Positions 2,978 through 51,988 are shown, counted from the stretch's first letter. The stretch: DNA of 64,000 nucleotides from Patescibacteria group bacterium (GCA_041665365.1 JBAYIY010000002.1:2178-66177), one strand, 5' to 3'. Translations and numbers: made by a program. The notes: generated by a model not told the origin, from the sequence alone.

Positions 2978-3646
2978 TTACTTCTCGGAATGATTTCTGG
3001 TATAAGTTTTTTTCAGCCAATAAGCCAGTACATTAAGTGGCAAACAAATAGCGATAAAAAATAAGGCCAGGGTTGTATAAATTTCGACTGGTTTGTAGAT
3101 CATGGAGTTGATTCTTTGAGCAACACGAAAAATCTCTTCAACAGAAATTAAACTGGCGAAAATTGTGGCTTGCAACATCGCCACTTGCAGAAAAAGCAAT
3201 TGCGGAATAACGGCACGCATCATCAACGGAAATTTAATTTTAGTAAATATTTCTTTTTCGCTTAGCCCACTGACTTTACCGGCAATAAAATACTGTTTCG
3301 GCAGTCCATCCAAACTATCTTTTATTATGGCTGCAACAAAAACAATATTAACAACCGAAAGACCAGCTGCTGCGGTAATAAATGGTTTGATGACAACTCC
3401 TAACATGGCTTGCAAGGGGAAGTGCAACCAAAACAAAATAACTAAAATTGGACTACTTGAGATTAGAAACCAAAACACTTTGAGCCAAGAGCCTACACCT
3501 TTTTTTTGATGTGCCCACCAGCCAAACAATACACCAAAAACTAAACCTGTCGTCCAAACAATTGCAACTAACGCCAAACTAACAAGGATGCCTGAGATGA
3601 GACCCTCCCGATATTGAATAATGATATGTGCGATCGTGTCAAACAT
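2978..3646 (-). CDS. Amino-acid ABC transporter permease
   Basis: Multi-TM hydrophobic protein between the binding protein and the ATPase; 1-nt spacing suggests translational coupling. Confidence 0.75.
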   Translation of the reverse strand: MFDTIAHIIIQYREGLISGILVSLALVAIVWTTGLVFGVLFGWWAHQKKGVGSWLKVFWFLISSSPILVILFWLHFPLQAMLGVVIKPFITAAAGLSVVNIVFVAAIIKDSLDGLPKQYFIAGKVSGLSEKEIFTKIKFPLMMRAVIPQLLFLQVAMLQATIFASLISVEEIFRVAQRINSMIYKPVEIYTTLALFFIAICLPLNVLAYWLKKTYTRNHSEK

Positions 3647-4524: not shown

Positions 4525-4564
4525 ATTTGATTATTTAAAGTGTAAAGTAGTGCCAGATTTTGTG

Positions 4565-4710
4565 AAGGCCTTTTTCGCGACGGCGCAACGGCAAAAAACT
4601 GCAGTTTATTACGACAGAGTGCAACGACCTGCTTGTGGATAACATTTTTCAGCGACGGCTCACCTACGTTCCTAAGAAGGAACTTCGGGTGAGTAAACTC
4701 TAATGTTGGT
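4565..4710 (+). repeat. Intergenic two-box repeat element, copy A (box1 CGCGACGGCGCAACGGC; box2 TGTGGATAACATTTTTCAGCGACGGC; nested hairpin)
   Basis: About 90% identical to copy B. Contains the perfect DnaA-box nonamer TGTGGATAA and the hairpin CTCACC-tac-GTTCCT-aaga-AGGAAC-ttcg-GGTGAG. Confidence 0.7.
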
Positions 4711-4835: not shown

Positions 4836-4865
4836 TTGACAAACAAAAAAGTTTTATGATATACT
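4836..4865 (+). promoter_or_regulatory. Near-consensus sigma70 promoter with extended -10
   Basis: TTGACA, 18-nt spacer, TGaTATACT. Confidence 0.5.
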
Positions 4866-4871
4866 TTTTTT

Positions 4872-5001
4872 ACTGAGCTTGTTAGGGTTTAGGCCCTCTC
4901 ACGGTTGAATACATAAAACCGTAAACAAGTCTCAGTAAATAACAAAACAAGTTATAATACAATCAATCCCCTTCTAAATCTCCAATGTGGAGTATTTTTT
5001 T
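4872..5001 (+). ncRNA. Candidate small RNA of about 130 nt, with its own sigma70-type promoter and a weak terminator
   Basis: TTGACA(4836-4841)-18 nt-TGaTATACT(4860-4865). The transcript has nested stems (gagCTTGTT...AACAAGtctc enclosing AGGGtttaggCCCT and ACGGTT...AACCGT). A 5-bp hairpin plus T7 lies at 4980-5001. There is no plus-strand ORF. Confidence 0.35.
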
Positions 5002-5014
5002 GTTTGATGTATTT

Positions 5015-5332
5015 TTAATATTTTACATTGACCATACGATATTGCCATTGAGAATTTGTATTCATTTGCTCCAGATGATTCGTTTCAAAAAATTCTTGCA
5101 AGGTATGTGATTTTTGTATAATCACAGGAGCCAATTTTAACAACCGAAAACGAATGTATTGATCTAGTTTTAATCTAGCCTTACCTTTTTTCTTAAATTT
5201 GAGATGTTCAATCCCCTTGGCATTGAAAGATACCGGCGTATGAAAGTAAGGACAATCTATTTGTCTAATAGTTTTATAAAAAGATTCTGCATCTGTTTTA
5301 GTTGATGCTAATTTTTCATCAGTTATTTCCAT
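5015..5332 (-). CDS. Hypothetical protein
   Basis: 105-aa ORF with no recognisable motifs. Confidence 0.4.
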   Translation of the reverse strand: MEITDEKLASTKTDAESFYKTIRQIDCPYFHTPVSFNAKGIEHLKFKKKGKARLKLDQYIRFRLLKLAPVIIQKSHTLQEFFETNHLEQMNTNSQWQYRMVNVKY

Positions 5333-5371
5333 TTATAAAATACTAAGTATAATATTTCGTTTTTACAAGAC

Positions 5372-5530
5372 CTTTTTCGCGACGGCGCAACGGCAAAAAA
5401 CCACACTTTATTATGACTGAGTGCAACGACTTGCTTGTGGATAACAATTTTTAGCGACGGCTCACCTACGTTCCTAAGAAGGAACTTCGGATGAGTAAAC
5501 TCTACTACGCTCGTAGGACAGAGCTTCGTA
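5372..5530 (+). repeat. Two-box repeat element, copy B
   Basis: Same architecture as copy A (box1 5377-5393; TGTGGATAA 5436-5444; hairpin). Confidence 0.7.
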
Positions 5531-9408: not shown

Positions 9409-10032
9409 TCAGAAATTAAATGTAATAGTAGATATAATCAATTCAACTTGTTTTTTATCTTCTTGTTTAGTGTTATTTGATAATATTGTAAAGTGTGCAT
9501 CTACTAAAGGATAATTATTAACCCAATACTCACTACTAATATCAGAAAAGAGTTCAGTTCCAGATTTTCCTCCTATTATGACCATTTTTTGTTCTAACCC
9601 CGGAACGCCATGGTCAATGTTTCTTTCGGGAAAAATTGTAAGCAGTATTTCCCCTTCCTTTGCTACCTGAACAACAGATACTTTTTTTCCTGGTAAAATC
9701 TTTGACACCAGATCAGTTTCTTGAACAGTTACATTAATGCCCACTGGATATTTAAAACTAAACCCATATTCATCATTCGTGTATGTTAACCAATCACTTG
9801 TATCCACTTCACTCACCTGTTCTGTATTAGTATTCTCATTGGTTACTACACCATTGATATTGTCATTTGAGTCCGTAACAACTACGTTAGTATTATCGTT
9901 TGTTGTATTTGTGTTTACCGTAACTGCATTGGTATTTATATTTGTTTTTTGAGTAGTTGTACAACTAGAGCCAGCTAAAAGTAGTGTGCAGGCAACTAAA
10001 GTGGTTAGTAAAGATAGTTTAGTTTTAAACAT
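9409..10032 (-). CDS. Lipoprotein, paralog A; Asn/Thr-rich linker followed by a conserved C-terminal domain
   Basis: MFKTKLSLLTTLVACTLLLAGSSC (lipobox-like). It shares ...DTSDW.TYTNDEYGFSFKYP with the 10405..11103 gene. Confidence 0.6.
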   Translation of the reverse strand: MFKTKLSLLTTLVACTLLLAGSSCTTTQKTNINTNAVTVNTNTTNDNTNVVVTDSNDNINGVVTNENTNTEQVSEVDTSDWLTYTNDEYGFSFKYPVGINVTVQETDLVSKILPGKKVSVVQVAKEGEILLTIFPERNIDHGVPGLEQKMVIIGGKSGTELFSDISSEYWVNNYPLVDAHFTILSNNTKQEDKKQVELIISTITFNF

Positions 10033-10404: not shown

Positions 10405-11103
10405 TTAAAATGTTAATGAATCTGCTACTTGTAAGAGGTCATCACTTATAGAAACATCTCCACTGATTGTTAAATTATTTTGTTTATCATTATAATTTGG
10501 TATCAATATATGTAGTGTATTAATTTTACTGCCATCAAAATCTGATATATCCTCAGTAACCTTAAGAGCAGGTTTGGTTCCGATAGTTATTTTCTCGACC
10601 GTCATTGTATTAGTTAGATTTCTATGTAGATCTTGCGCCAACTGATCATTTGTTTTTGTAAAATCAACTTTTGTGTAATCGAACCAACTGTTTGCATCAG
10701 ACGCATTTATAGTTTCTAAGCTATTACTTGATATCACCAAACGAGGGTTGCCAATTATGTCTTGCTTAAAATTATTTTCATCTCTAAAATTAATTGTCAA
10801 AAGAAATGGCACAGTATCACCTATCGAAACTTGCACGCTGCCCCACTCTTTTGGATACTTAAAACTAAACCCATATTCATCATTGGTATAAGTTTGCCAA
10901 TCACTAGTATCAATACCACTAACCTGCTCTACATTAGTATTGTCATTACTAACATTATCATTGGTGTTAGTTACAGCTTCAGTATTCACGTTATCGTTAA
11001 TAGTATTTGTATTTGTTTTTTGAGTAGTTGTACAACTAGAACCGACTAAAAGTAGTGTGCTGGCAGCGAAGGTGATTAGTAAAGCTAGTTTAGTTTGAAT
11101 CAT
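10405..11103 (-). CDS. Lipoprotein, paralog B
   Basis: MIQTKLALLITFAASTLLLVGSSCTTTQKTN..., paralogous to 9409..10032. Start chosen at MIQTKL (11103). The upstream promoter cassette is conserved. Confidence 0.6.
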   Translation of the reverse strand: MIQTKLALLITFAASTLLLVGSSCTTTQKTNTNTINDNVNTEAVTNTNDNVSNDNTNVEQVSGIDTSDWQTYTNDEYGFSFKYPKEWGSVQVSIGDTVPFLLTINFRDENNFKQDIIGNPRLVISSNSLETINASDANSWFDYTKVDFTKTNDQLAQDLHRNLTNTMTVEKITIGTKPALKVTEDISDFDGSKINTLHILIPNYNDKQNNLTISGDVSISDDLLQVADSLTF

Positions 11104-11177
11104 AAATTTAGAATTAAATAAATATAGTCTATATACCTGTACTATGGTCATAGAATGTTAGTTAGTGCAATAAGTAA

Positions 11178-11509: not shown

Positions 11510-12265
11510 TTATAATGGTTTAGGAATTCCACGTATGATTTTTCTATTAACAGCAATGGAATGATTTTGAATATAAACAAGTAATTGATCATTAGACATA
11601 TACGTTAACTCGTCAATCTCATTAATATCTGGAATGAAATATAACTCACCATCGCTTTCGACGGCCATAATAACCCGTCCTATTAATCGTTGTTGTAAAT
11701 CCTCATATAGCTCCTCATGACCACTAATAATACTACTACAGGTAGGCCCTTCTCCAAAATCTAGGCATGCTAAAGCCTGAATATCTAAATTAGATGCCGG
11801 TGTAACACGAAAATCACCAACAGCTGCTGCTTCCAAAAAAGCAGAATATATGTTTTTTGAACTCAACTTTTGTTTAAAACCGTCTGCTATCCAGTAATAC
11901 CTGTTTTTTACTTTATAAAACCCATCTGGTAAATATCTATTGATTATCGGTAAACCGTTGGCAGTATTTATCCAATACATTTTACCAGAGTGTTGTGCGC
12001 GTAAAATAACTTTTCCTTCTAAGATATTAAGTATGGGATCACAAAGTCTACCTAGCGGAGTTGTGACAGCATCACTGGGTACATTTTCGTTTGCAGTGTA
12101 ACAATGACTATTCAATAATTCTTTATAAACAGATTCACTAACACCAATAATATTAGGGGTAAGATTCACCACGGTCATAGCGTTTGTTAAAGACGGTAGT
12201 ACCAACGTAAGTACTAATAAACTAACAACTATAGTAGAGATAGTTATGTGTTTAGATCTAGTCAT
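11510..12265 (-). CDS. Secreted hypothetical protein
   Basis: Signal-peptide-like N-terminus MTRSKHITISTIVVSLLVLTLVLPSLTNA. It shares the same upstream promoter cassette as the lipoprotein paralogs. Confidence 0.5.
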   Translation of the reverse strand: MTRSKHITISTIVVSLLVLTLVLPSLTNAMTVVNLTPNIIGVSESVYKELLNSHCYTANENVPSDAVTTPLGRLCDPILNILEGKVILRAQHSGKMYWINTANGLPIINRYLPDGFYKVKNRYYWIADGFKQKLSSKNIYSAFLEAAAVGDFRVTPASNLDIQALACLDFGEGPTCSSIISGHEELYEDLQQRLIGRVIMAVESDGELYFIPDINEIDELTYMSNDQLLVYIQNHSIAVNRKIIRGIPKPL

Positions 12266-13867: not shown

Positions 13868-14770
13868 ATGCGTGTTTTAGCTATCTACACAGGTGGTCTA
13901 CCCGGCAAAAATATAGTTGAACAATTACAACATTATTTTGAATTACAATTAGTGGCCACGGTGGATATTCATCTGTTTTCCAGTATTACCGGCGGTGATG
14001 TTCCCTATTCATTAAGTAGTGATCTTACCCAATATATTTACGATCATTATAATGACTACGATGGCTTTGTGGTTATTCATAGTATTGATAATGTTATCTA
14101 CAGCGCTAATTTAACCGCCTTCCAATTTAGTAATTTAGGTAAACCGATTGTTTTTACCGGTGCCACTTTATCAGAAGACTTTTTCTCTTTTCCGGGTCAT
14201 TTCTCCAATACTGAGCAATCGATGTATCGCGAAATGAGTTTGCGCACTAGTTTAGTTACCGCCGTCCAGTTAGCCACGCAAAACACCTCCGATGTTTCTA
14301 TTACCTATGGTTCACGCATTGTGAAGGCAGTGCGGGCTTGGGAAAATTTCACCACTTACAATGAATTGGATTTAGCTTCGATCCGGTTTGGTATCGAAGT
14401 AACAACGGCTGCTAGACCACGCAATGATCAACCACCCATTTTACGCTTAGGGTTTGACACTAATGTTTACATGGTGCCACGCCAACCTGAGGTTATCATC
14501 CCAACACCCAATACCTATCGTGCTATTTTGATGTATGCCCATCAAGATCGGGCGCTACCCAGCCAATTTAATATGCCAACTGATACTCCAGTTTTCTTGT
14601 TAGGCGGCTTAGGACATCAGAAGTTACCAAACAATGTGTTTGCCTTACCGCCGGTCACTCCGGTTACTGCCCTGAGTAAACTGATGGTGGGCTGCAAACA
14701 TTTTCCGACCACACCAGAACTAGTGGATTATATGCAGCATAATATTAACGGCGAAGGTGGTATTGTATGA
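13868..14770 (+). CDS. L-asparaginase-fold protein with substituted catalytic threonines (probable pseudo-enzyme)
   Basis: MRVLAIYTGGLPGK...YDGFVVIHSIDNVIYSANL...GKPIVFTGA aligns to asparaginase type I blocks. TGGTIA is replaced by TGGLPG and HGTDTM by HSIDNV. Confidence 0.55.
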   Translation: MRVLAIYTGGLPGKNIVEQLQHYFELQLVATVDIHLFSSITGGDVPYSLSSDLTQYIYDHYNDYDGFVVIHSIDNVIYSANLTAFQFSNLGKPIVFTGATLSEDFFSFPGHFSNTEQSMYREMSLRTSLVTAVQLATQNTSDVSITYGSRIVKAVRAWENFTTYNELDLASIRFGIEVTTAARPRNDQPPILRLGFDTNVYMVPRQPEVIIPTPNTYRAILMYAHQDRALPSQFNMPTDTPVFLLGGLGHQKLPNNVFALPPVTPVTALSKLMVGCKHFPTTPELVDYMQHNINGEGGIV

Positions 14771-15309
14771 ACATTTACCTGGTAAACAACGCCCCCACCA
14801 ATATTGTCAGTTTGTTGCAACACAAAAATGTCAATATTTGGTCACGGACAACGGGTTTACCCAGTGTGATTACTGGCTTCTCCTGGAACGCTCTAGAACG
14901 AGTTGATGCGATTATTTTAGAAATTTCTTACCCATCAGATGAATTGCATTATATTCTGGCTCAAGCGATTGTTTTACAACGTCCCACGTTATGTTTATAT
15001 CCAAAAAATCGCGAGCCCCGTGAAATGTTACTACACTTACAAAAACCTAGTGTACCGAAATCAGTTGTCGCACGTAGTTACACTACCACTACCATCAGTG
15101 AAGTGATCGGTAAATTCCTACATAGTATCGATCATACTGTACAACTGGATCAAACCCCCAATATAAAATTTACTTTACGCTTAACTCCGGCCATTTCACA
15201 TTATCTAACTTGGCTAACTGAATTTAAAAATGTGAACAAAGCTGACTATTTAAGACAATTATTAAAAGATACGGCCGAGAAGGATAATGATTATCAGAAA
15301 TTAATGTAG
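14767..15309 (+). CDS. Hypothetical protein, translationally coupled to the asparaginase-like gene
   Basis: ATGA overlap with the upstream gene; 180 aa. Confidence 0.45.
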   Translation: MNIYLVNNAPTNIVSLLQHKNVNIWSRTTGLPSVITGFSWNALERVDAIILEISYPSDELHYILAQAIVLQRPTLCLYPKNREPREMLLHLQKPSVPKSVVARSYTTTTISEVIGKFLHSIDHTVQLDQTPNIKFTLRLTPAISHYLTWLTEFKNVNKADYLRQLLKDTAEKDNDYQKLM

Positions 15310-15340
15310 AAATTTAATTAATGTCTAGACTTATCCACCA

Positions 15341-15368
15341 TTGACACCATCTGTCAGTGTGCTAATAT
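15341..15368 (+). promoter_or_regulatory. Sigma70-type promoter
   Basis: TTGACA-16 nt-TAATAT. Confidence 0.45.
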
Positions 15369-15476
15369 GCCCGTAGGAAAACTGAGGCGTCCAAAATCTA
15401 GATAACACAAATAAGGAATTAATTTCTCTTGTGCTTATCTCTGGACACCTCAGTTTTCTTATAGGGACGTTTTTCT
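15369..15476 (+). ncRNA. Candidate structured RNA: long, near-perfect hairpin of about 105 nt downstream of the promoter, ending in a T-run
   Basis: GAAAACTGAGGCGTCC pairs with GGACACCTCAGTTTTC (15/16). Inner AGATAACACAA pairs with TTGTGCTTATCT. Apical loop is ATAAGGAATTAATTTCTC; the hairpin is followed by TTTTTC. Confidence 0.3.
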
Positions 15477-15650
15477 GGCACAGCCTCAATTTATTGAAGT
15501 TGTGCTGGAAAACACGCCTCTAGCTACCACTCCGATTATCCCCTTGTGTGGTAGTAATACAATTTATGGTGAAACCGAACACTTAGGCGGCGCTTTTTTC
15601 TAAGTGACTAAGGTAAACTTTTTACCCCAATTCGGATAACACCAGTCTGC

Positions 15651-15693
15651 TATCTCTATGGTAGATGTCATACACTCATTTACCATAGAGATA
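15651..15693 (+). promoter_or_regulatory. Perfect 13-bp inverted repeat (candidate operator) upstream of ssb
   Basis: TATCTCTATGGTA-N17-TACCATAGAGATA, about 80 nt upstream of the ssb start. Confidence 0.35.
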
Positions 15694-15773
15694 ATAGATG
15701 TGCCAGATGTACAAACGCGTTTCATCATCTACAGTAGCTTATCTTAATATTGTCTTAAACTAACATTAGTCTT

Positions 15774-16166
15774 ATGGATTTGAATCGCGTATCATTAATT
15801 GGTAATTTAGCTATGGAACCAGAACACAAAACTTTACCATCTGGTGCCAGTATTACTCGCACTAGTCTGGCTACTAGTTTTGCCTGGAAAGATAGTAAAA
15901 CTAAAGAGTTAAAAGAAAAAACCGATTTCCACACCATCATTGGTTGGAATAAACTAGGTGAACGAATTCACCAGTATCTAAAAAAAGGCGACCGCATTTA
16001 CGTGGAAGGCCGATTGGATCATCATTCTTACGAAGGAAAGGATGGCATCACGAAATATTTTACCAACATTATTGCCGAACAGTTAATTATGTTAGGCAAA
16101 GGTAAACGTGAAGTCACCACCACCGATGAACCAATTGTGACCGAACCGGTGACGGAACCGTTTTAA
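15774..16166 (+). CDS. ssb: Single-stranded DNA-binding protein
   Basis: MDLNRVSLIGNLAMEPE...IGWNKLGERIHQYLKKGDRIYVEGRL; acidic C-terminal ...TEPF tail. Confidence 0.85.
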   Translation: MDLNRVSLIGNLAMEPEHKTLPSGASITRTSLATSFAWKDSKTKELKEKTDFHTIIGWNKLGERIHQYLKKGDRIYVEGRLDHHSYEGKDGITKYFTNIIAEQLIMLGKGKREVTTTDEPIVTEPVTEPF

Positions 16167-16233
16167 TATCACCCAATGTAGGGACATGCCATGGCATGTC
16201 CCTACATTGGGTGATTGTCATACAAATTAATTA

Positions 16234-16935
16234 TCAAATAATGATTTCATCAATCCCCCGTACCGGTTCGCCTAACCATTTACCTCCGGCTTTGGTTACT
16301 TCCACCATATCTTCCAACCGGATCCCACCCCAACCAGGTTCATACACGCCAGGTTCATCAGTGATTACGTCACCTATTTGTAAGAGTCTTCTCCCCCGCC
16401 GACTCGGTGATAAAAACGGCGGTTGATGTATGGCTCGACCCACACCGTGCCCCAAACCATGAATGAATAATTTATCTAAGTGCTGGCTTTGTAAATATTG
16501 GCGCGCAACCTGATCTACTACATTTCCAGTCACACCCGGTTTGATTTTTTTGAAAGCTAACCGTTGGGCTTGTAGCACTGCATAAAAACGCGTGCGAAAT
16601 AAACTGGTGGGTGCACCCATAAAATAAGTTCGCGTCACATCACCCCGCATATGTTGGTATACTCCACCAGCATCAACCTTAACCATATCGCCCAACTGTA
16701 ATCGACGACTGGTTGGTTTATGATGCGGCTCAGCCGCTGAAGACCCAAAGGCCGCAATCACCGGAAAAGCGCGTTGCTCTGAGTAAGCTTCGGTTAATAA
16801 TCGGCCCATGCGCCAGGCTAATTGTTTTTCAGTTATCCCTATTACAATATAACGTGGTAAAAATCGAAACGCCCGATAAGTTATCCGTGCTACTTTCCGG
16901 CAGGCCGGTAGATTATAGCTTGGCCCACTTCCCAT
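16234..16935 (-). CDS. M24 family metallopeptidase, catalytic domain only (Xaa-Pro aminopeptidase-like)
   Basis: GDVTRTYFMG...FIHGLGHGVGRAIHQPPF...GVYEPGWGGIRLED pita-bread fold motifs. Short (233 aa), with no N-terminal creatinase-like domain. Confidence 0.65.
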   Translation of the reverse strand: MGSGPSYNLPACRKVARITYRAFRFLPRYIVIGITEKQLAWRMGRLLTEAYSEQRAFPVIAAFGSSAAEPHHKPTSRRLQLGDMVKVDAGGVYQHMRGDVTRTYFMGAPTSLFRTRFYAVLQAQRLAFKKIKPGVTGNVVDQVARQYLQSQHLDKLFIHGLGHGVGRAIHQPPFLSPSRRGRRLLQIGDVITDEPGVYEPGWGGIRLEDMVEVTKAGGKWLGEPVRGIDEIII

Positions 16936-35854: not shown

Positions 35855-35859
35855 TATCT

Positions 35860-35893
35860 AAACAAACACCCGGCTTGAGCCGGGTGTTTGTTT
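35860..35893. terminator. Bidirectional Rho-independent terminator between convergent genes
   Basis: AAACAAACACCCGGC-TTGA-GCCGGGTGTTTGTTT, a perfect 15-bp stem with U-rich arms. Confidence 0.7.
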
Positions 35894-37418
35894 AGATGAG
35901 ATATTTATTCTTTTTTAGTGTTTCCACTAAAACTGTTTTGCTATCAAGTTTAATGGCTCCCCTAACAGATGCTACGGTAGTTAACACGAACACTTTATGT
36001 TTCAGTAATAATTTCACTAATACAGGAGCATGTTTAATATCTTTAGCTGACACAATTTCGTAAGACACACCTAATTTTTTTAATTGTTGAGCAGCATGTT
36101 TCAGGAATTTTGGTGAACCGGAAATAAGACCGGCTTTTTTCACTTGCACAGTTGATTTAGTAACGGCTACTTTAACACCTTTAACAGGTGCGATAATTAC
36201 TCCGGCACCAACGGTGGCATTAGTGAGCTCATCAATAATAATAAAAGCACCGGTATTGCGGTTTTTATAATACGGATCAAACATTAACGGTTGACTAGTA
36301 GTGATATACACCCGACCGATTTCGTTAAACTGTAACGCCTTAGCTGGTTCACGATGATAGCTATCAATGTTTAAACGATACCGCAGCGTATCAATCTGGC
36401 CTCTGGTGGTTCTGGTGGTATGTTTAATAATATAGCTTCTTTTGGGTTGCATGGGCTCTTCAGAAAACCAACACATAGTAGCTTCAAATTTATTAGCCAC
36501 TTCCGGCACGTTTTGTTCGCGCACAATCATGTCACCGCGGGAAATGTCCCGTTCATCAGTTAGAGTTAAAACAACAGATTGCCCAGAGAAAGCCTCGGTT
36601 TGGTTTTTATCATCATAGATGACTGACTTAATTTTGGAGGCTTTACCCGATGGTAAAATACTCACCTTATCCCCCACGCGCACAATGCCACCTTCAACTC
36701 TACCGGCATAACCACGAAAATTTTGATTAGGCCGAATAACGTATTGCACGGGAAATCTAAAATCAATTAAGTTGCGATCGCTCACAATTTGCACGTTCTC
36801 GAGATAATCATACAAGGTGGCCCCTTGATACCAGTTCATGTTATTGCCTCGATTCACTACCATATCACCCCGTAACGCTGAGATCGGCATAATCTGAAGA
36901 TCTTCAATGTGTAACCGAGTGGCGCATTGAATAACATCTTTTTTTATAGCCTCAAATATTTCCTGACTATACTCAACATCATCAATTTTGTTGACTACTA
37001 CTAAAATATGCGGGATAGATAACAAACTAGCCACAAACAAATGTCGCTTAGTTTGGGTGAGCAACCCATGCCGAGCATCTACTAAAATGATAGCAATATC
37101 AGCGGTAGAGGCACCGGTCACCATGTTGCGGGTATACTGCTCATGGCCAGGCACGTCAGCAATAATAAAACGTCTTTTCTGCGTGGTGAAATAACGGTAA
37201 GCGACATCGATCGTAATTTTTTGTTCACGCTCAGCCGATAAACCGTCAGTGATTAAAGATAAATCTATCTCTTGACCGGAGGTTTGACTGGCTTTCTTAA
37301 TAGCATCCAGTTGATCTTGAAAAATGGCGTTACAATCAAATAGTAACCGACCAATCAAGGTGGATTTACCATCATCGACACTGCCCGCGGTTGTAATTCT
37401 AACTAGTTCTAGTGCCAT
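35892..37418 (-). CDS. cysN: Sulfate adenylyltransferase subunit 1 (CysN GTPase) with a C-terminal extension of about 80 aa
   Basis: AGSVDDGKSTLIGRLL, DGLSAEREQKITIDVAYRYF, DVPGHEQYTRNM. Start taken at MALELV. No APS-kinase P-loop in the extension. Confidence 0.8.
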   Translation of the reverse strand: MALELVRITTAGSVDDGKSTLIGRLLFDCNAIFQDQLDAIKKASQTSGQEIDLSLITDGLSAEREQKITIDVAYRYFTTQKRRFIIADVPGHEQYTRNMVTGASTADIAIILVDARHGLLTQTKRHLFVASLLSIPHILVVVNKIDDVEYSQEIFEAIKKDVIQCATRLHIEDLQIMPISALRGDMVVNRGNNMNWYQGATLYDYLENVQIVSDRNLIDFRFPVQYVIRPNQNFRGYAGRVEGGIVRVGDKVSILPSGKASKIKSVIYDDKNQTEAFSGQSVVLTLTDERDISRGDMIVREQNVPEVANKFEATMCWFSEEPMQPKRSYIIKHTTRTTRGQIDTLRYRLNIDSYHREPAKALQFNEIGRVYITTSQPLMFDPYYKNRNTGAFIIIDELTNATVGAGVIIAPVKGVKVAVTKSTVQVKKAGLISGSPKFLKHAAQQLKKLGVSYEIVSAKDIKHAPVLVKLLLKHKVFVLTTVASVRGAIKLDSKTVLVETLKKNKYLI

Positions 37419-51877: not shown

Positions 51878-51940
51878 CTCCTATCGTAGGAGGGGGTAAG
51901 AAAATAGACAGATTTTTTTTCAACCCCTTCCTACAATAGG
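51878..51940. repeat. Two related GC-rich hairpins in tandem between convergent genes
   Basis: CCCTCCTA-tcg-TAGGAGGG and CCCCTTCCTA-caa-TAGGAAGGGG, separated by a T8 run. Confidence 0.4.
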
Positions 51941-51988
51941 AAGGGGTGGCCCGAGTCATCGAGGGACGGGGATGGTGTCCTAAGGTTC

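Follow-up and report, generated by a model that had tools for sequence, protein, structure and literature searches.

The leader of phage T4 gene 32, which has one small pseudoknot, provides autogenous translational control by the single-strand-binding protein. To our knowledge, ssb does not belong to a class of genes under riboswitch control, and almost nothing is known about the regulatory RNAs of Patescibacteria (CPR). A search of the literature found no relevant described CPR or ssb-associated RNA. In the rpsF-ssb-rpsR operon, the leader that binds S6:S18 is a short hairpin mimic of 16S rRNA located before rpsF (PMC3895269).

In one family of Patescibacteria, ssb is directly preceded by a conserved RNA of ~350-400 nt that has its own promoter and eight helices (P1 to P8). 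As in T4 gene 32, the gene is of SSB type and comes after a structured element, from which an unstructured A/U-rich stretch leads to the start codon; unlike in T4 gene 32, there are eight helices over ~350 nt and a pseudoknot is not established. The RNA also resembles the S6:S18-binding leader (PMC3895269) in being a structured RNA at the head of what would be an ssb transcription unit, but rpsF and rpsR are lacking here and the RNA is about ten times larger. An assignment to the S6:S18 rpsF leader was rejected because rpsF is not adjacent to the RNA and there is no Rfam match. The first-pass annotation of the window (the whole 64-kb stretch of DNA that was analyzed) had noticed only the first helix and described it as a self-contained 105-nt hairpin RNA. 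That hairpin is P1, one part of a P1-P8 architecture with covarying downstream helices.

Promoter and Gene Setting

In the window, the RNA lies in a 464-bp gap (15310-15773) between an ORF for a 180-aa protein (14767-15309, + strand) and ssb (15774-16166, + strand; 130 aa; Pfam SSB, E = 3.7e-29; NCBIfam ssb). The gap was initially thought, at about 460 bp, to be unusually large for this genome; large it is, but not unique, as seven other gaps in the window measure at least 300 bp, one of them 1049 bp. No ORF of at least 40 aa is present on the + strand of the gap. Hidden ORFs on the - strand (52 and 42 aa), considered together with small genes called in relatives, are mutually inconsistent and were rejected. 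The RNA/ssb locus is beside a dcw cluster (mraZ, rsmH, ftsI, murF).

The promoter of TTGACA-16-TAATAT form proposed ahead of the hairpin is present at 15341-15368 (+ strand). It consists of a -35 element (TTGACA, 15341-15346), a 16-nt spacer, and TAATAT at 15363-15368 with TG ahead, which together give an extended -10 (TGcTAATAT, 15360-15368) and 10/12 matches in a consensus scan. Full TTGAC-N13-16-TGnTAnnnT sites number three in the 64-kb window, this site among them, and TTGAC-N14-16-TGnTAnnn[T/G] is kept in 16 related loci. From the position of the -10 and the -10-to-start distance at leaderless genes, we infer a transcription start site (TSS) at ~15375. The gene for the 180-aa protein, which is clade-specific, always adjoins this promoter; in the window, no terminator falls between the two.

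P1 and the Downstream Helices

P1 (15375-15460, + strand) would form the 5' end of the RNA. Above its 18-bp base helix (15375-15392 with 15443-15460; one C.A mismatch at 15388/15447) come an asymmetric internal loop and an upper helix that varies; the inner helix is 11 bp with a bulge. Both stems were correctly recognized from the outset; the 105-nt unit assigned to them does not stand. A fold of 15368-15476 reaches -44.2 kcal/mol compared with -19.3 +/- 3.2 for 200 dinucleotide shuffles (z = -7.9), none of which (0/200) folds as well. Within the window, the hairpin is single-copy when up to 3 mismatches are allowed.

Conservation in relatives, anticipated for the hairpin, is found for the base helix, which is retained with the promoter in 16 related loci. 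Across 15 sequences, 263 of 285 cells of the base helix are paired (92%), and by our own count compensatory changes occur at five positions; pairing is far above chance. For example, CUGAGG/CCUCAG in some sequences is UAGAGG/CCUCUA in others, and in locus L026 a G-C pair is replaced by A-U. The 5' arm, GAGGCGUCC, is nearly invariant across the 15 sequences and reads AG(A/G)AAAA(C/U)UGAGGCGUCC in relatives. The 3' arm, GGA(C/U)(A/G)CCUCAG followed by U6-7, varies, with changes from C.A to C-G and from G-C to G.U. The polarity of the A-run and U-run does not flip in any of the 15 sequences, while neighboring pairs covary. Near invariance of the 5' arm and fixed polarity of the runs point to constraints beyond pairing; recognition of the 5' arm by a factor, sequence needs close to the promoter, and pausing or partial termination at the U-run are candidates. 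Because the predicted TSS is the first base pair of P1, the 5' end would be fully sequestered. Burial of an RNA 5' end in a helix is a classical stabilizing arrangement. A pairing of the 5' arm with the loop of P5 (8 pairs, one bulge) was also considered and set aside, since the invariant arm gives no covariation. The interior and apex of P1 range from 30 to 79 nt among relatives and have no common motif.

The span of P1-P8 is about 15375-15730. A common plan, derived from alignments and per-sequence folds, is found in all relatives, and ~300 nt of further structure beyond P1 is common to the related loci. Elements are in the order of P1, P2, P3, a ACAAUUUA linker, P4 enclosing P5 and P6 in a three-way junction, P7, P8, an AU-rich stretch, and ssb. 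When the whole gap is folded, the + strand yields -155 kcal/mol (z = -10.5) and the - strand has a z of -7.0.

P2 (15462-15522, + strand) starts 1-2 nt past the U-run of P1 and is a hairpin of three sub-helices, CUGG/CUGG among them, with the form UAGGG..ACG..CUGG[hairpin]CUGG..CG..CUCUA. The TTTTTC at 15470-15475, formerly read as the end of the P1 hairpin, in fact belongs to P2 as its 5' strand, with 15508-15516 as the pairing partner. P3 (15523-15555, + strand) abuts P2 and is a hairpin of GCUACCAC and GUGGUAGU. It is followed by the conserved, single-stranded linker (15559-15566, + strand), which in relatives ends with an invariant ACAAUU(U/G)A; at the DNA level, ACAATT is invariant in alignments A2, A3, and A4.

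The three-way-junction domain of P4, P5, and P6 (15567-15644, + strand) is marked by covariation, and model R2 scores the window at 63.9 bits. P4 (15567-15571/15640-15644 plus 15575-15579/15631-15635, + strand) encloses P5, P6, and a C-rich junction strand, ACCCC (15624-15628, + strand). In relatives, P4 is 10-14 bp and wholly different in sequence in each lineage. P5 (15580-15606, + strand) has a conserved loop, GGYGGCGCU, at 15587-15599, which across relatives reads GGUGGCGCUC...; P6 (15612-15626, + strand) is inside P4. A pseudoknot between CGCCAC, in the 3' strand of P2, and GUGGCG of the P5 loop was examined. The two are complementary, but CGCCAC already pairs with GUGACG in P2, and changes in relatives do not tell the two pairings apart. 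The pseudoknot was rejected as a fixed element, and the complementarity could possibly represent a switch.

P7 (15646-15698, + strand) is a long near-perfect hairpin with 22-nt arms and no U tract. A hairpin of this type follows P4 in 10/10 full-length relatives, is about 20 bp with a stability of -31 to -37 kcal/mol, and always differs in sequence; it may be an attenuator, a terminator, or a stabilizer. P8 (15705-15730, + strand) is a short GAUG/CAUC hairpin whose loop holds the palindrome AAACGCGUUU at 15713-15722. In DNA, this 10-bp palindrome is AAACGCGTTT and is ~56 nt 5' of the ssb start. Most relatives have a short hairpin with the loop palindrome (A)AACGCGUU(U); the palindrome is AACGCGTT in six relatives and a shorter GAAACGTTTC in locus L014. 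Read by eye, the stems that flank it differ in sequence among relatives and keep their complementarity. The palindrome could be a kissing-loop (dimerization) motif or an operator for the ribbon-helix-helix (RHH)-like protein encoded nearby. As a genome-wide operator or SOS-like box it was rejected, since the window has one exact copy of AAACGCGTTT and no more near-matches than chance would give.

Between P8 and the start codon, an AU-rich linker (15731-15773, + strand) is predicted to be unstructured and has neither a Shine-Dalgarno sequence nor an extended -10. In relatives, the unstructured AU-rich stretch is 40-60 nt, and the last 45 nt before ssb are 67-80% A+T in 11 orthologues.

Covariation and the Transcribed Strand

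Covariance models were built from 3-4 close relatives with hand-written structures and used to realign distant sequences. With pair counts somewhat inflated because the alignments were fitted to the structures, 92.1% of cells in P2 and P3 combined are paired and 18 of 28 pairs are changed on both sides (model R3, alignment A10, 11 sequences). P2 alone has 21 pairs, of which 12 are changed on both sides, and is 90.7% paired in the 11 sequences; the corresponding values for P3 are seven pairs, six changed on both sides, and 96% paired. None of 500 shuffles reaches the values observed for P2/P3, and slid controls are 31-52% paired. Under the same procedure, 89.3% of cells in P4-P6 are paired and 15 of 25 pairs are changed on both sides (models R1 and R2, alignment A8, 8 sequences), with 0/500 shuffles reaching these values and slid controls 29-46% paired. 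In P4, 12 of 13 pairs are changed on both sides. Despite the inflation, the formation of one helix from totally different P4 sequences would be hard to explain without selected pairing.

P2 contains a tandem U.G/G.U, present in 10/11 and 11/11 sequences, respectively, and never replaced by Watson-Crick pairs. The transcribed strand is the + strand, because the invariant U.G/G.U would be A.C/C.A on the other strand. The tandem suggests a specific recognition site. The broader proposal that this is a promoter-driven, structured, non-coding element on the strand of ssb, conserved in relatives, is borne out.

Distribution and Synteny

Relatives were gathered from contigs that encode homologues of the 180-aa protein, plus a 373-kb contig with an SSB homologue. 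The promoter and the base of P1 are carried by 16 related Patescibacteria (Kerfeldbacteria-like) loci. In every relative with enough sequence, an asparaginase-like gene, the 180-aa gene, a gap of ~390-530 nt, and ssb are kept in this order. In two of them, L010 and L015, the four-part block is flipped with respect to murF and a gene for an M24 peptidase, with its internal order the same. The position before ssb is fixed: across 10 loci, the distance from the predicted RNA start to the ssb AUG is 362-449 nt. All genes in this narrow clade keep their synteny, so the position next to ssb says little about a functional link.

The outgroup locus L027, with an SSB of 47% identity, has a classical rpsF-ssb arrangement in which rpsF is directly before ssb and efp is after (L027:576-1503). 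Upstream of its ssb, neither covariance model gives a score. The only match of R2 in L027 (15.1 bits, E = 0.033) is at 3281-3384, ~1.8 kb downstream and antisense in an unrelated gene, which is at chance level. Conversely, the RNA-bearing family lacks rpsF beside ssb.

A metagenome scan with a DNA pattern of the promoter and 5' arm recovered four true partial loci and one chance high-GC match, counts that underestimate the abundance of the family since the pattern is too strict (L026 has GAGGCATCC). A scan of a genome collection seeded with SSB returned only three distant Firmicutes/Tenericutes loci. Phage and plasmid collections gave no BLAST match, and neither the metagenome pattern scan nor the contigs of relatives showed the RNA apart from ssb. 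Models R2 and R3 each match the window once, and a repeat element or MITE was rejected on account of the single copy in the window. The distribution is narrow, at one Patescibacteria family and about 16 loci.

Comparison with Known RNA Classes

Searches with Rfam models identified no family at gathering thresholds across the window, at E<=10 in 15250-15830, or at E<=1 in ten homologous loci. The permissive search returned only chance matches to microRNA precursors, far below their thresholds. Even at E<=10, the Infernal/Rfam scan that had been put forward as a check (SRP, 6S, tmRNA, and others) yields no match to SRP, 6S, tmRNA, or RNase P RNA. What the data strongly support is a new family of structured RNAs within one Patescibacteria family.

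Like small SRP RNA, P1 is a single long imperfect rod-like hairpin with its own promoter. Unlike it, P1 is only one-fifth of a conserved RNA and its tetraloop/loop site is unconserved. The likeness to SRP (4.5S) RNA first seen in the long rod with internal loops and an A/G-rich apical loop containing AAGGAA does not hold, as no covariance model (RF00169) matches, AAGGAA is unconserved, and the apex, where domain IV would be expected, is the least conserved part. Also rejected were 6S RNA (no match; the RNA is a row of local hairpins without end-to-end pairing or a central bubble), tmRNA (none found by ARAGORN in 14500-16500; no Rfam match; no tRNA-like end), and RNase P RNA (no model match; folds lack long-range P1/P2/P4 pairing and a P4-type pseudoknot core). 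Short motifs reminiscent of the eukaryotic 7SL Alu domain (GGUGGCGC, GUAGUCC, AGCUAC, CUGAGG) differ from it in order and pairing partners.

The RNA is like riboswitch, T-box, and protein-binding leaders in its covarying, sensor-like core, where loop and junction nucleotides are conserved. As in attenuator leaders, an ever-present hairpin of variable sequence follows the core, and the whole is on the same strand as, and directly 5' of, one gene. It differs from riboswitch and T-box leaders in that no aptamer or T-box model matches, the attenuator candidate has no U tract, and a long 5'-terminal helix precedes the core. By inspection, no mutually exclusive antiterminator or conserved alternative pairing was recognized. 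OLE, ROOL, GOLLD, and raiA RNAs are likewise multi-helix, strongly covarying, and lineage-restricted; unlike these, which are in Rfam, the RNA described here has no match, is smaller, and is tied to one housekeeping locus.

Neighboring Genes and Genome Habits

The 180-aa protein has 24 homologue clusters among 5.8 billion proteins, and those that are named belong to Patescibacteria/Candidatus Kerfeldbacteria MAGs. Its distribution is as narrow as that of the RNA. An AlphaFold (AF2) model has a pLDDT of 82.6, and a Foldseek match of its N-terminal domain to DNPH1/RCL (E about 6e-5) identifies a predicted nucleotide-binding fold that is like nucleoside 2-deoxyribosyltransferases. A modeled C-terminal strand-helix-helix looks RHH-like by eye, and no model confirms it. 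The location of a putative nucleotide-sensing regulator beside a structured RNA and ssb is suggestive. The 180-aa gene is translationally coupled, by an ATGA overlap, to a gene for a truncated asparaginase/GatD-like protein of 300 aa (13868-14770).

None of about 55 ORFs in the window has a Shine-Dalgarno sequence before it. In nine other genes of the window, TGnTAnnnT ends 3-9 nt before the start codon. Extended -10 elements of this geometry, with no Shine-Dalgarno sequences, imply that leaderless mRNAs are probably widespread.

A perfect 24-bp palindrome (16168-16215) comes right after the ssb stop and is terminator-like without a U tract. Strong hairpins after ssb are present in 7/9 relatives with enough downstream sequence, L014 and L015 being the two without. 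Long perfect U-less palindromes also occur at gene ends at 35856-35897 and 51923-51947. Canonical terminators are not enriched (19 found vs 15.5 expected in 20 kb). The lineage may terminate or stabilize transcripts with U-less hairpins.

A second full-consensus promoter, TTGACA-N-TGATATACT (4836-4865, + strand), is followed at ~4872-4935 by a candidate for another small, structured non-coding RNA (-28.1 kcal/mol, z = -6.4). Two small hairpins lie within its closing stem, ACUGAGCUUGUU/AACAAGUCUCAGU. The candidate shares with P1 an opening ACUGAG and a closing CUCAGU, and Rfam has no match to it. After it, at 4980-5003, is a canonical terminator of a stem and U7. Within the 1049-bp gap, a 145-nt direct repeat (4558-4702 and 5360-5504; 91% identical) brackets this candidate and a minus-strand ORF of 105 aa (5015-5332), and each copy of the repeat has a CUCACC...GGUGAG hairpin. 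Elsewhere in the window, genes at 9409-10032 and 11510-12265 (- strand) have identical 30-nt upstream sequences; one is PsbP-like and the other has no Pfam match. A third PsbP-like gene is at 10405-11151, and the set looks like a local tandem duplication.

Candidate Roles

The only conserved promoter in the interval between the 180-aa gene and ssb is the one at the base of P1, and TGnTAnnnT is found within 70 nt of the ssb start in 0/11 orthologues. Because no ssb orthologue has the usual promoter of the lineage close to its start, the best reading is that the RNA is a long cis-acting 5' leader of the ssb mRNA, a reading to which we give about half of our confidence. P7 and P8, with stems that have diverged yet stay complementary, occupy the interval up to ~45 nt from the AUG. 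Since P8 is beyond P7 and its stems are complementary, selected RNA structure appears to reach this far, which favors co-transcription. In addition, ssb in the outgroup is the second gene of an rpsF-ssb operon without the RNA; therefore, ssb of the family with the RNA would have needed a new upstream promoter.

As a leader, the RNA would be transcribed rightwards from the promoter at 15341-15368, through P1-P8 and ~45 nt of AU-rich sequence, into ssb. P1 would cap and stabilize the 5' end, and its polarity-conserved U-run may pause or partly terminate transcription. The P2-P6 core would be a putative binding or sensing domain for a factor, and P7, like the U-less hairpins after genes here, could be a gate on transcription that reaches ssb. 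A cis-acting attenuator or an sRNA, both offered for the hairpin in the first-pass annotation, was the right kind of idea for a unit of 350-400 nt, not for the hairpin alone. Several points count against a leader. A leader of 400 nt would be an outlier in a genome dominated by leaderless-looking genes that lack Shine-Dalgarno sequences. P7 resembles the hairpin after ssb at 16168-16215 and could end an independent RNA. A TAAC/TAAT motif, found in most orthologues 13-17 nt 5' of the ATG, could serve ssb as a weak promoter of its own. Lastly, neither a conserved alternative pairing nor a ligand or protein partner was found, and adjacency to ssb carries little weight in a clade of conserved synteny.

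The alternative that survives best, which we consider possible though tentative, is a stable ncRNA of ~330 nt that comprises P1-P6 and stops at P7; it would work in trans or within an RNP and be next to ssb by synteny only, and ssb would then have a weak leaderless-type promoter of its own. Full-consensus strong promoters are rare (3 in 64 kb), and the presence of another one ahead of a second small, structured hairpin that is non-coding suits an RNA gene, as does the similarity of P7 to the perfect U-less hairpins after ssb and between convergent genes. Most mRNAs in the genome look leaderless, and TAnnnT is found 5-9 nt before the ssb ATG in 5-6/11 orthologues. The conserved loops, tandem G.U, and three-way junction also suggest a specific partner. 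Against such an RNA, P8, with stems diverged yet complementary, is 3' of P7, and the transcript seems to run past P7; moreover, a conserved extended -10 before ssb is found in 0/11 orthologues, and there is no instance of the RNA apart from ssb.

More speculatively, and in our view rather unlikely, the RNA and the 180-aa protein could join in a ribonucleoprotein or in a nucleotide-sensing circuit through which SSB production and replication are coupled to the supply of deoxynucleotides, or the RNA itself could be a riboswitch for a new ligand that controls a core replication protein.

It is improbable that P1 alone is the product, either as a ~90-nt hairpin RNA that ends at its own U-run or as a mere terminator of the upstream two-gene operon. 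Its GC-rich base followed by U6-7, the constant A-run/U-run polarity in 15 sequences whose neighboring pairs covary, and the lack of another terminator between the 180-aa gene and the RNA promoter in the window are what such a product would predict. Yet the U-run (15454-15460), right after the GC-rich stem, pairs with the A-run at the RNA 5' end, the "loop" is a sub-structure of 30-79 nt, and a terminator scan of 15200-15900 reported none. P2 begins immediately after the U-run with no promoter between, so covarying P2-P6 must be transcribed through P1. Because selection acts on P2-P6 as RNA and they lack a separate promoter, P1 cannot be a full terminator, and a conserved promoter immediately 5' of a pure terminator would make no sense.

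We regard as very improbable a housekeeping RNA (SRP/4.5S, 6S, RNase P RNA, or tmRNA) so divergent that it escaped the covariance models. The dcw-side context, strong promoter, and a length in the range of RNase P RNA and tmRNA would fit one, but the permissive searches of the region and of 10 homologous loci and the ARAGORN search returned no such RNA. The structure comprises local hairpins and one three-way junction, with no 5'/3' terminal pairing or conserved apical SRP motif, and its distribution is confined to one family.

Least probable of all is a DNA-level element (cruciforms, a replication or recombination site, an operator array, or a decayed mobile element), for which long inverted repeats, a DnaA-box-like TTATCCACC at 15332-15340 just 5' of the -35, and the palindrome AAACGCGTTT near the gene for a putative DNA-binding (RHH-like) protein could be cited, but the invariant G.U pairs are on one strand only, the conserved promoter adjoins the base of P1 exactly, the element has one copy and no GC-skew switch or change in gene-strand bias at the locus, and the DnaA-like box is not conserved in relatives and probably due to chance.

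Significance

Patescibacteria make up a large share of bacterial diversity and have tiny genomes with little room for non-functional DNA. The narrow distribution of the RNA, one family and about 16 loci, limits its general impact. Within this family, a heavily covarying RNA of 350-400 nt before an essential replication gene likely has an important function. If it is an independent RNA, it would be a new orphan class. If it is part of a circuit that couples nucleotide supply to SSB production, that circuit would operate in host-dependent ultrasmall bacteria and the RNA would be a new class of large structured RNA. If, as we prefer, it is a leader, it would be a rare long one in a lineage that is otherwise leaderless-looking and without Shine-Dalgarno sequences, and it would be, to our awareness, the first structured-RNA control of ssb in cellular organisms.
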